Shown here: in pieces, positions 19,204 to 25,995 of the stretch
Position numbering within the stretch: the stretch's first letter is position 1
Layout: each line of letters begins with the position of its first letter
DNA from: a virus
Taxonomy: Duplodnaviria; Heunggongvirae; Uroviricota; Caudoviricetes
Direction: 5' to 3' (one strand)
DNA: 30,562 nucleotides
IMG/VR virus record: IMGVR_UViG_2703718870_000021
Notes under the pieces: generated by a model
The model's input: the letters and a program-made list of their open reading frames with translations, nothing else
Databases searched by the model: none
Told to the model about the DNA's origin: nothing
Made by a program: the position numbers and the translations under genes

Positions 19204-22884
<3,681 letters not shown>

Positions 22885-22910
<26 letters not shown>

Positions 22911-23430
22911 TCAGCAACCCCGGTATCAGTTCATCCAGCGCGGCTGCTTTGTTCATGGCTTTGATGATATCCCGTTTCAGGAAATCAACATGTCGGTTTT
23001 CCAGTTCCGGAAAACGCCGCTGCACCGACAGGGGGATCCCGTCGAGAATACTGGCAATTTCACCTGCGATCCGCGACAGCACGAAAGTACAGAATGCGGT
23101 TTCCACCACTTCAGCGGAGTCTCTGGCATTTTTCAGCTCCTGTGCGTCGGCCTGCGCACGCGTAAGTCGATGGCGTTCGTACTCAATAGTCCCTGGCTGG
23201 AGATCTGTCTCGCTGGCCTGCCGCAGTTCTTCAACTTCCCGGCGCAGCTTTTCGTTCTCAATTTCAGCATCCCTTTCGGCATACCATTTTATGACGGCGG
23301 CAGAGTCATAAAGCACCTCATTACCCTTGCCACCGCCTCGCAGAACGGGCATTCCCTGTTCCTGCCAGTTCTGAATGGTACGGATACTCGCACCGAAAAT
23401 GTCAGCCAGCTGCTTTTTGTTGACTTCCAT
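22885..23430 (-). CDS. Nu1: terminase small subunit Nu1
   Basis: 181-aa ORF MEVNKKQLADIFGASIRTIQNWQEQGMPV... (HTH); lies immediately downstream of cos. Confidence 0.95.
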
Positions 23431-23640
23431 TGTTCATTCCACGGACAAAAACAGAGAAAGGAAACGACAGAGGCCAAAAAGCTCGCTTTCAGCACCTGTC
23501 GTTTCCTTTCTTTTCAGAGGGTATTTTAAATAAAAACATTAAGTTATGACGAAGAAGAACGGAAACGCCTTAAACCGGAAAATTTTCATAAATAGCGAAA
23601 ACCCGCGAGGTCGCCGCCCCGTAACCTGTCGGATCGCCGG
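23431..23640. other. cos: cos packaging site: cosB between Nu1 and cosN; cosN cohesive-end sequence at 23608-23619; cosQ-side flank to 23640
   Basis: plus strand aggtcgccgccc at 23608-23619 is the reverse complement of the lambda 12-nt cohesive end GGGCGGCGACCT; flanking CGCGGGTTTTCGCTATTTATGAAAATT and CCGACAGGTTACG match what I recall of the lambda genome termini. Confidence 0.85.
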
Positions 23641-23655
23641 AAAGGACCCGCAAAA

Positions 23656-23670
23656 TGATAATAATTATCA
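23656..23670. promoter_or_regulatory. perfect 7-1-7 palindrome TGATAATAATTATCA (Fur-box-like)
   Basis: 15-nt palindrome seen directly; matches the TGATAATnATTATCA Fur operator consensus; function unproven. Confidence 0.35.
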
Positions 23671-23818
23671 TCTACATGTCACAACGTGCATCTACGCCAT
23701 CAAACCACGTCAAATAATCAATTATGACGCAGGTATCGTATTAATTGATCTGCATCAACTTAACGTAAAAACAACTTCAGACAATACAAATCAGCGACAC
23801 TGAATACGGGGCAACCTC

Positions 23819-24013
23819 ATGTCAACGAAGAACAGAACCCGCAGAACAACAACCCGCAACATCCGCTTTCCTAACCAAATGATTGAACAAATTAACATCG
23901 CTCTTGAGCAAAAAGGGTCTGGGAATTTCTCAGCCTGGGTCATTGAAGCCTGCCGTCGGAGACTAACGTCAGAAAAGAGAGCATATACATCAATCCAAAG
24001 TGATGATGGATGA
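23819..24013 (+). CDS. ylcI: small DUF3950/YlcI-like protein, predicted ribbon-helix-helix fold
   Basis: 64-aa ORF MSTKNRTRRTTTRNIRFPNQMIEQINIALEQKGSGNFSAWVIEACRRRL...; beta-strand (NIRFP) then two helices pattern typical of Arc/CopG-type RHH proteins; recognised as near-identical to YlcI of prophage DLP12. Confidence 0.7.
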   Translation: MSTKNRTRRTTTRNIRFPNQMIEQINIALEQKGSGNFSAWVIEACRRRLTSEKRAYTSIQSDDG

Positions 24014-24373
24014 ACATCCCGGTTTCTTCCACCATCGCACCGGAAAAGCGACTATGAGGGTAACCCTGCGTCTGTCAGCACAGTAAAACCCGGTGTGCAT
24101 CGTTTTTGATTATTCCCGCACACTCACGCAGAAGGAATTCCCCGTCGGGCTACGGTCATGGTTAATGCGGGAATACGGCGACGATACAGCGCAGCTAAAA
24201 GGGTAATGGACAGATAGAGCGGTTTATTTCATTCCACAGGATTCTGAGTGCCCCCCCTCCTCCAATAGGCTGAGCATCCACCTATATAGTTTTAATTTTC
24301 ATCAATCCATTTAACTATCGTTTAATTGTTGTCACATAGGATTCTGCCGTTTTTAACAATGCAGGATAATAAG

Positions 24374-24667
24374 ATGAAAAAAATGTTGTTTTCTGCCGCT
24401 CTGGCAATGCTTATTACAGGATGTGCTCAACAGACGTTTACTGTTGGAAACAAACCGACAGCAGTAACACCAAAGGAAACCATCACCCATCATTTCTTCG
24501 TTTCGGGAATTGGACAGGAGAAAACTGTTGATGCAGCCAAAATTTGTGGCGGCGCAGAAAATGTTGTTAAAACAGAAACCCAGCAAACATTCGTAAATGG
24601 ATTTCTCGGTTTTATTACTTTAGGCATTTATACTCCGCTGGAAGCGCGTGTGTATTGCTCACAATAA
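24374..24667 (+). CDS. bor: Bor lipoprotein (serum-resistance-associated)
   Basis: 97-aa product MKKMLFSAALAMLITGCAQQTFTV... with lipobox LITGC; recognised as near-identical to lambda Bor; ORF track extends upstream to 24326. Confidence 0.9.
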   Translation: MKKMLFSAALAMLITGCAQQTFTVGNKPTAVTPKETITHHFFVSGIGQEKTVDAAKICGGAENVVKTETQQTFVNGFLGFITLGIYTPLEARVYCSQ

Positions 24668-24698: not shown

Positions 24699-25160
24699 CT
24701 ATCTGCACTGCTCATTAATATACTTCTGGGTTCCTTCCAGTTGTTTTTGCATAGTGATCAGCCTCTCTCTGAGGGTGAAATAATCCCGTTCAGCGGTGTC
24801 TGCCAGTCGGGGGGAGGCTGCATTATCCACGCCGGAGGCGGTGGTGGCTTCACGCACTGACTGACAGACTGCTTTGATGTGCAACCGACGACGACCAGCG
24901 GCAACATCATCACGCAGAGCATCATTTTCAGCTTTCGCATCAGCTAACTCCTTCGTGTATTTTGCATTGAGCGCAGCAACATCACGCTGACGCATCTGCA
25001 TGTCAGTAATTGCCGCGTTCGCCAGCTTCAGTTCTCTGGCATTTTTGTCGCGCTGGGCTTTGTAGGTAATGGCGTTATCACGGTAATGATTAACAGCCCA
25101 TGACAGGCAGACGATGATGCAGATAACCAGAGCGGAGATAATCGCGGTTACTCTGTTCAT
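24699..25160 (-). CDS. Rz: spanin inner-membrane subunit Rz
   Basis: [44 protein letters not shown]... matches lambda Rz; ATG overlaps the R stop (ATGA). Confidence 0.9.
24758..24940 (-). CDS. Rz1: spanin outer-membrane lipoprotein Rz1, embedded in the +1 frame of Rz
   Basis: 60-aa [41 protein letters not shown]... with lipobox and proline-rich segment. Confidence 0.85.
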
Positions 25161-25654
25161 TGCTGACCCCACAAACAGATTTCACGCTCAATCTCACGAC
25201 GAGTCATGAGACCTTTCCATTGCTTACCGCCAGCATATGTCCAGCGACGTAGCTGATCACATGCGCCTTTGATATCGCCCTGGTTTATTTTGCGAAGAAG
25301 CGTCGATGTTCTGAAATTGCCAGCACCCACGTTGTAAACGAATGAGTAAAGAGCGCCGCGCATTGTTTCCGGTATATCGACTTTGATGTACGGGTTAATT
25401 TGTCTGGCGACCGTGGCAAGGTCTTTATTCAGGAGGGCTTTGCATTCTGCTTTGGTATACGTTTTACCGAGCATGATGTCTTTTCCTGTATGCCCGTGAC
25501 ATACAGTCCATACACCAACAATATCTTTGTATGGTATGTAGCTGACACCTTCCAGACCATCGTTACCACTTGGGCCAGTGATTAACACTGATGCTATAGC
25601 AATTGCTCCGCCACCAATAGCAGCAGCAACGGCTTTTCGTAATGATGGAGGCAT
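25157..25654 (-). CDS. R: SAR endolysin (T4-lysozyme-type muramidase, phage 21 R-like)
   Basis: 165-aa ORF; N-terminal Gly/Ala-rich weakly hydrophobic segment [20 protein letters not shown] (signal-anchor-release type) then lysozyme-like domain; not the lambda R transglycosylase. Confidence 0.9.
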
Positions 25655-25869
25655 TATTCACCTCTCGCAGCCTTGCGCTTATCTTCTTTAATCTTGAAAT
25701 AAAGGTTTGTCAGGTACGTCAGCAGGCCAAATACCAGGCTACCCAGCACACCTATTGCTGCCCACTGTGAGGGCGTGACTTTATCGAGCAGCTGTAAAAA
25801 CCAGTAACCGGCACTACCTGCTGAGGTGCCATAGGCGACACCCGTTGTTAACTTATCCATGGATTTCAT
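25654..25869 (-). CDS. S: class II pinholin (phage 21 S-like) with dual-start motif
   Basis: starts [28 protein letters not shown]... (Met1 antiholin, Met4 holin); two TMDs; GAGGTG SD before the ATG at 25869; the ORF track extends 15 codons upstream. Confidence 0.9.
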
Positions 25870-25995
25870 AACCCCACCTCGCAGACAAAGCGGGTGTAAA
25901 TTGAGGGAATACAACGTATCGCAAAAAAGCAGAAACGTAACAGACTCGGAGTCAGTGAATAACTCAGGTATTGGGTTATCAGCTAATATCGAGAC

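Follow-up and report, generated by a model that had tools for sequence, protein, structure and literature searches.

The DNA analysed here, called the window below, is a 30,562-nt stretch of a Caudoviricetes genome (IMG/VR record IMGVR_UViG_2703718870_000021). The phage is of the lambda type: over positions 23450-24050 it shares 100% identity with phages Turner and PhiR11_1 and 97% with lambda. Its packaging genes are read from the minus strand, with Nu1, the terminase small subunit, at 22885-23430 (Pfam Phage_Nu1, E = 3.9e-101) and the next late-operon gene, the gpA-like terminase large subunit, at 20985-22910. The latter is a 641-aa open reading frame (ORF) that overlaps the end of Nu1 as in lambda and was named by synteny.

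The elements of cos lie upstream of Nu1 on the same strand. The cosB region, which carries the binding sites for the terminase small subunit and IHF, extends from cosN to the Nu1 start (23431-23607) and was assigned by its position and its near-identity to lambda, DLP12 and Qin; its function is established (PMC4669245). An inverted repeat within it (AGGAAACGACAG...CTGTCGTTTCCT, 23450-23516) gave sub-threshold Rfam miRNA matches on both strands, which are spurious. We take this repeat to be the oppositely oriented R sites to which terminase binds. The 12-nt cohesive end of cosN (GGGCGGCGACCT on the minus strand) occupies 23608-23619, with the nick between 23619 and 23620, and the ends of the 434, lambda and phi80 records coincide with it. 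The packaging termination signal cosQ, which reads GGGTCCT on the packaging (minus) strand, lies at 23643-23649. It is annotated at the corresponding place in the phage 434 record and corresponds to lambda bp 48473-48479; its function is known from the literature of the Feiss laboratory, summarised in PMC4669245.

Beyond cosQ, the plus strand carries a 64-aa ylcI/ynfO-like ORF that is transcribed away from cos (23819-24013; Pfam DUF3950 [YlcI/YnfO family], E = 2e-20), followed 313 nt downstream on the same strand by the bor lipoprotein gene (24326-24667; Pfam Lambda_Bor, E = 5.7e-30). Judged from translations only, the adjoining lysis cassette (24699-25914) resembles that of phage 21 and is not of the lambda type. 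It comprises an S21 pinholin-like short holin (25654-25914), an endolysin whose N-terminus includes a hydrophobic, SAR-like segment (25157-25654) and Rz (24699-25172) with an embedded Rz1 (24758-24940).

The dyad beside cosQ and its match to the Fur consensus

Between cosQ and the ylcI-like ORF, positions 23656-23670 read TGATAATAATTATCA, a perfect 7-1-7 inverted repeat (unstranded). The order of elements on the plus strand is ...GAGGTCGCCGCCC/CGTAACCTGTCGGATCGCCGGAA-AGGACCC-GCAAAA-TGATAATAATTATCA-TCTACATGTCAC..., in which the 12-nt cohesive end (AGGTCGCCGCCC, 23608-23619) is followed by 23 nt, AGGACCC (cosQ), GCAAAA and the dyad. The dyad thus starts 36 nt from the cos nick and 6 nt past cosQ, and it ends 148 nt before the ATG of the ylcI-like ORF; its centre lies 233 bp from the Nu1 ATG and about 660 bp separate the dyad from bor. 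At up to two mismatches, TGATAATAATTATCA is unique in the 30.5-kb window (0.03 matches expected; two matches in 0 of 100 shuffles).

The dyad matches the 7-1-7 Fur consensus TGATAATnATTATCA at 14 of 14 positions. Scored against the 19-bp Fur box GATAATGATAATCATTATC, the locus holds a 16/19 match at 23651-23669 and a 15/19 match on the opposite strand at 23657-23675, and these are the only 19-mers in the window to match at 15 or more positions. By consensus match, positions 23651-23675 therefore form an unstranded cluster in which two 19-bp Fur boxes overlap with an offset of 6 bp, an arrangement equal to the pair that Chen 2007 reports for nohA. The initial annotation had described a perfect 7-1-7 repeat matching the Fur operator, about 37 bp from the cosN end and about 150 bp upstream of the ylcI-like ORF; both the match and the measured distances bear this description out.

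Other kinds of element were also sought at the dyad. Neither strand of 23600-23720 contained a match to the IHF consensus WATCAANNNNTTR, and the half-sites of an FNR motif are present at the dyad with the wrong spacing, so we rejected it as an IHF or FNR site. A reading as a hairpin, a terminator or a known RNA was likewise discarded: the fold at the dyad is weak (-4.7 kcal/mol, z-score -1.7), no terminator-like site was found there, and the Rfam search returned only spurious sub-threshold matches away from the dyad. A sigma-70 promoter-like element does overlap the dyad (23655-23682, minus strand; -35 GTGACA, 16-nt spacer, -10 TATCAT, 10/12). Known from its consensus match only, it points through cosQ and cosN towards Nu1.

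Counterparts in the cryptic prophages of E. coli K-12

The dyad is already known as a Fur site: it is the nohB/nohA Fur box of the E. coli K-12 cryptic prophages. In DLP12, the identical 15-mer lies with identical flanks at the same position, between ylcI and nohD (formerly nohB), with its centre at 580601 of NC_000913.3, which is 579824 in older numbering. In Qin, the lambda version TGATAATGATTATCA, which differs from the window dyad by one base, lies between ynfO and nohA, with its centre at 1634624. The shifts between genome versions (777 and 1976 bp) were checked on gpmA and nohA. The copy in phage 434 is the same as those of the window and DLP12.

Resemblance to these two prophages extends beyond the dyad. 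In DLP12 and the window alike, the dyad has the same two flanks, the same cosQ and cosN, ylcI as its neighbour and the Nu1 homologue at 233 bp; DLP12, however, is defective and its packaging operon is truncated, whereas Nu1 and A are intact in the window. The Qin nohA site occupies the homologous position, which in lambda is bp 48452-48466, and is likewise a 7-1-7 dyad, with G instead of A as the free central base. The Qin and lambda copies differ from that of the window by a few flank substitutions, which weaken the -35 of the promoter-like element (GTGATA versus GTGACA).

Evidence for Fur at these sites goes back decades. Chen 2007 (PMC2189734) placed the nohB cluster at 579824, with four sites and 25.3 bits, third in its genome-wide table; for nohA, the same study gave a 22.3-bit site, predicted a pair at 1634624 and 1634630, 6 bp apart, and showed that an nohA oligonucleotide was gel-shifted with 150 nM Fur. 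Its '-233' for nohA equals the distance from the dyad to Nu1 in the window. For nohB it cites the Fur titration work of Stojiljkovic 1994. A Sau3A fragment of nohA was obtained in an in vivo Fur selection (Vassinova & Kozyrev 2000), and Myers 2013 counts nohA among Fur-repressed operons. The suggestion in the initial annotation that no Fur control is described at this position is thus wrong (Stojiljkovic 1994; Vassinova & Kozyrev 2000; Chen 2007; Myers 2013), whereas its proposal of a Fur operator is upheld by the identity with the DLP12 nohB site, by the titration and gel shift of the nohA variant, and by a ChIP-exo peak on a diverged copy in strain CFT073 (described below).

The Fur literature files this site under the names of prophage genes and not as part of cos. 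From the phage side, no Fur site is marked at the dyad in the carefully annotated records of 434, lambda and phi80, and literature searches for Fur with Nu1 or cosN, and for ynfO/ylcI with iron, returned nothing relevant. That the dyad stands beside cosQ in most lambda-type phages has apparently gone undescribed.

Conservation across lambda-type cos regions

The initial annotation had proposed comparing the palindrome across lambdoid genomes. We gathered cos regions without reference to the dyad, by scanning viral contigs for a cosN 14-mer and, in a second scan, one genome per bacterial species for the cosN-to-cosQ pattern. After chance hits in GC-rich genomes and duplicates had been dropped, 43 classes remained, mutually unrelated to the right of cosQ. 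We then scored each class by its best match to TGATAATnATTATCA within the 29 nt that follow cosQ. The distribution was bimodal, with at least 11 of 14 positions matched in 29 of the 43 classes and at most 8 in the other 14, some of which are clearly functional phage-type modules. By comparison, matches of at least 11/14 occurred in 0.4% of 29-nt blocks from the same loci and in 3.8% of blocks with at least 70% AT, both figures including the true sites. The palindrome is therefore conserved among classes whose flanks are otherwise unrelated.

Where present, the dyad starts 3-7 nt past cosQ, most commonly 5 nt. It lies outside the 7-bp GGGTCCT and its spacing varies, so it is not cosQ itself, though it is inherited with cosQ. 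Phages that carry it include lambda, 434, phi80 and N15, in which it reads CGATAATAGTTATCG and overlaps the gene 59 stop codon; among the host genera are Escherichia, Citrobacter, Kluyvera, Klebsiella, Serratia, Buttiauxella, Trabulsiella and Dryocola. Close relatives of lambda gave only nine haplotypes and are uninformative; the lone variable dyad position among them is the free central base.

Several positions outside the selected 15-mer are also conserved, namely AAA at -10 to -8, TT at +9/+10 and A at +13. These unselected flanks complete the 19-bp Fur box on the left and, on the right, form a second site shifted by 6 bp that matches at 11/14. Across 27 classes, mean pairwise identity was 0.80 in the dyad, 0.51 at +8 to +14 and 0.27 from +15 onwards, where composition alone predicts 0.26; in the variable portion of the cosN-cosQ spacer it was 0.57. 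Because identity falls to the random level from +15, the Fur cluster, judged by sequence comparison, marks the outer end of what is conserved in the lambda-type cos module, next to the mosaic breakpoint.

Little else accompanies the dyad consistently. A YlcI homologue lies beside it in only 5 of the 43 cos classes, so YlcI is not its conserved partner, and we rejected both an operator for YlcI (RHH-like) and the regulation of ylcI as its conserved function. In N15, phi80 and many others, the neighbouring gene is co-directional with terminase. A promoter-like element comparable to that of the window was found in only about 9 of 28 dyad-bearing classes, which led us to reject a conserved sigma-70 promoter over the dyad. 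Since neighbouring genes vary and the promoter is not conserved, cosQ and, at 230 bp, the terminase operon are the only partners that the dyad always keeps. One class without the dyad has a strong intrinsic terminator in its place beside cosQ, oriented against transcription towards cos, which hints, at most, at a recurring need to shield cos and terminase from transcription that enters from outside.

The scans also brought up variant cos arrangements. Loci from Serratia (L158, 7548-7611) and Buttiauxella (L159, 2330-2385) hold two Fur-consensus dyads 41-49 bp apart. Eight viral contigs carry two inverted lambda-like cosN-cosQ units 0.5-0.9 kb apart (for example, L014, 4133-4728), with a Fur dyad in neither unit; in one inverted-cos unit, a strong intrinsic terminator (GCCGGAGAAATCCGGC followed by T8) abuts cosQ after a capsid-like gene cluster. 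Eight loci from Alphaproteobacteria (Paracoccaceae, Ruegeria, Silicibacter, Hyphomicrobiales and others) share CGCCGCCCCGTATAC...GGGAAGGACCC, that is, the left half of a lambda-like cosN and a cosQ at lambda spacing, without a Fur-like dyad; they may represent a distant branch of lambda-type cos. Lambda-type cos sequences nearly identical to the E. coli lambdoid kind were found in six assemblies, among them Oceanobacillus, Neobacillus, Shewanella, Leeuwenhoekiella and Nanosynbacter. Such contigs in unrelated organisms are mostly short or of low coverage, and the match often lies at contig ends; an Archangium contig (L162) matches phi80 over the roughly 60 nt compared. These look like contamination with laboratory phage or spike-in DNA.

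Fur occupancy, expression and possible roles

In vivo occupancy of a homologous site has been recorded in strain CFT073. Gao 2023 (PMC10164565) lists a Fur ChIP-exo peak, P53, at 1424699-1424711, present under iron-replete conditions only and situated between two transcription units, one of which starts with a terminase small subunit. We found that this 13-nt peak falls inside a diverged dyad (GTGATAATTATTCTC) located 6 nt from GGGTCCT. The CFT073 prophage thus resembles the window in its 6-nt spacing to cosQ and its distance of about 230 bp to the terminase small subunit; its binding is specific to iron-replete cells, and its flanking genes rise in a fur deletion. It differs in its diverged dyad (GAGAATAATTATCAC, 12/14), in a right flank unrelated to that of the window and in its neighbours, which include a small Cys-rich secreted ORF and a TonB-family gene instead of ylcI. 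Both lie in NC_004431.1 1423654-1424664 (155-481 and 845-1165 of our locus L123). The TonB-family gene encodes a lipoprotein and lies about 0.7 kb before the cos-adjacent Fur box. The Cys-rich ORF is unannotated and divergent, encodes a signal peptide and a Cys-rich tail, and starts about 30 nt from the dyad; it may be one of the genes raised in the fur deletion.

For K-12, the data on occupancy differ between sources. Myers 2013 gives a ChIP-seq summit in MG1655 at 1634625 (U00096.2; position 3602 of our locus L002), listed under 'repressed by Fur'. This summit, 1 bp from the Qin dyad centre, comes from anti-FNR ChIP-seq, where it stands with nine other classical Fur sites. As the half-sites at the dyad are mis-spaced, the anti-FNR peak at nohA is not explained by an FNR motif. 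The Fur ChIP-exo list for MG1655 (PMC10164565) has no peak at the nohB or nohA positions; the W3110 list, searched by gene name, has none for nohD, and the BL21(DE3) list, searched by flanking locus tags, has none at the lambda DE3 cos, where the dyad lies at 768425-768439. Near-identical prophage copies may cost mappable reads, but there are several base differences near the dyad, which makes this only a partial excuse.

Transcript levels in fur deletions point in different directions. In CFT073, both units beside P53 are raised (pan-regulon table of PMC10164565): in TU53, C_RS26755 and C_RS07340 change by log2 +2.95 and +2.33, and in TU54, C_RS07355 (the terminase large subunit), C_RS07365 and C_RS07370 change by +1.34, +1.57 and +2.13, respectively. 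These increases could reflect general prophage induction in the fur mutant. In published RNA-seq data for the MG1655 fur deletion, nohD, nohA, ybcW and ydfO are unchanged, at about 0-5 FPKM in both strains. In the W3110 fur deletion, log2 changes are -3.9 for ylcI (not significant), -5.3 for ybcW, -3.7 for ybcV, -5.1 for ynfO and -2.0 for ydfO, all at very low read counts; these falls are on the ylcI side of two independent prophages. Of the genes near the site, borD (NC_000913.3 578600-578893) alone is both well expressed and altered in the MG1655 fur deletion; it falls by log2 1.2 (2.3-fold, p = 5e-21) and is also down about 2-fold in W3110. This fall may well be indirect. Fur binding is thus well supported, and the transcriptional output is inconsistent between MG1655, CFT073 and W3110.

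Taking these results together, we favour the view that the dyad is a true operator, bound by Fur-Fe2+ with high affinity, that it belongs ancestrally to lambda-type cos and that it would most likely damp Q-independent transcription around cos and terminase, a composite that we put at about an even chance of being right. Sequence identity with documented Fur sites, conservation across lineages and the ChIP-exo peak on a diverged copy are what this view builds on; the regulatory step is one that we infer, and the data for regulation are mixed. The two overlapping 19-bp boxes would leave room for two Fur dimers. When iron is replete, Fur would occupy roughly 23645-23680, covering the promoter-like element and touching cosQ, and basal, Q-independent transcription into or out of the cos-terminase region would thereby be damped in the prophage; in the phage of the window, ylcI and bor might be damped as well. 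When iron is scarce, the damping of cos-terminase transcription would be released. The 230 bp upstream of Nu1 are taken up by cosQ, cosN and cosB, so the spot just outside cosQ would be the nearest free place to the terminase operon.

The neighbourhood of the dyad might instead point to packaging. Placed ahead of cosQ on the side from which terminase arrives, Fur could act as an architectural factor or speed bump that aids recognition of cosQ and cosN at the end of packaging, or it could mask cosQ in the prophage; either variant, if true, would couple DNA packaging to iron status, much as IHF acts at cosB, and we consider this unlikely. In its favour, nothing next to the dyad is conserved except cosQ, at 3-7 nt, while genes on the right vary and the promoter is not conserved; a Fur footprint on 23651-23675 would be expected to reach cosQ; and the 55-bp 'cosQ; aka R4 region' of the phi80 record includes the dyad. 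A precedent for a packaging accessory is the IHF site I1 in lambda cosB, which is also a conserved site within cos for a host DNA-binding protein (PMC4669245), but I1 is on the far side of cosN from the dyad and has been shown to function in terminase assembly, whereas the dyad lacks an IHF consensus and any part that it plays in packaging is putative. The spacing to cosQ, however, varies by 4 bp, almost half a helical turn, which speaks against a fixed protein-protein contact, and the 14 classes without the dyad include clearly functional phage-type modules. Moreover, saturation mutagenesis limited cosQ to 7 bp, and lambda growth is not known to depend on fur. In a stronger form, the Fur box would be a fourth, unrecognised functional subsite of lambda-type cos, with bound Fur joining or gating packaging termination or cos exposure. 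If so, cellular iron status would bear on virion production in lambda, 434, phi80, N15 and related phages, a prospect that we rate as a long shot.

Other readings give Fur a different task or none at all. By analogy with what has been described for ftnA, Fur-Fe2+ bound 156 bp upstream of ylcI might counter H-NS-type silencing of the AT-rich moron region, so that iron sufficiency would turn on ylcI and the same-strand genes downstream (bor here, ybcV/ydfO in K-12). The lowered ylcI-side genes at two independent prophages in the W3110 fur deletion and the roughly 2-fold fall of borD in both MG1655 and W3110 agree with this, yet the read counts are very low, ybcW and ydfO do not change in MG1655, the direction in CFT073 is opposite, and indirect effects are possible, for example through RyhB or growth differences. 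As YlcI accompanies the dyad in so few classes, activation of this kind cannot be the conserved function, and we regard it as quite improbable. Alternatively, the hundreds of copies that lytic replication makes of this site, among the strongest for Fur known in E. coli, might titrate Fur, just as plasmids do in the Fur titration assay, and derepress host iron uptake to the benefit of the phage, the site being at cos only because cos is the one conserved non-coding block in these phages. Fragments of nohA and nohB were first isolated because their multicopy clones titrate Fur in vivo, and the score of the site is among the top of the genome (Chen 2007, PMC2189734). This decoy would nevertheless leave the fixed position beside cosQ unexplained. 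Furthermore, one site per genome binds few Fur monomers, of which a cell has thousands; we think the decoy, together with its account of the position, very unlikely. Finally, AT-rich non-coding phage DNA often yields weak Fur-like matches, as the 3.8% of AT-rich blocks reaching 11/14 illustrates, and the resemblance to a Fur site might be a coincidence in a chance palindrome or in the site of a phage protein such as the RHH-like YlcI. Against this stand the full 14/14 match, its recurrence in 29 of 43 classes with otherwise unrelated flanks, within-group variation at the free central base and the documented binding of Fur to homologous copies. YlcI is moreover absent from most dyad-bearing classes, and the IHF or FNR consensus, a stable hairpin and an Rfam match are all missing. 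We give coincidence scarcely any credence, and a chance palindrome is essentially excluded.

As a Fur site, the dyad adds nothing new, the identical sequence having been catalogued for decades. Databases enter it as a promoter site for the cryptic nohA and nohB genes, but it in fact forms part of cos in lambda (bp 48452-48466) and in most lambda-type phages of Enterobacteriaceae. A binding site for the host iron sensor has been retained by selection next to the signal that ends packaging, while the sequence to its right was all exchanged. Packaging in lambda is among the best-studied processes in virology, which makes a conserved host-factor site at cos without an assigned role worthy of attention. 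Depending on which reading is true, either a link between iron and the expression of prophage and terminase genes or a new accessory factor in packaging would follow.
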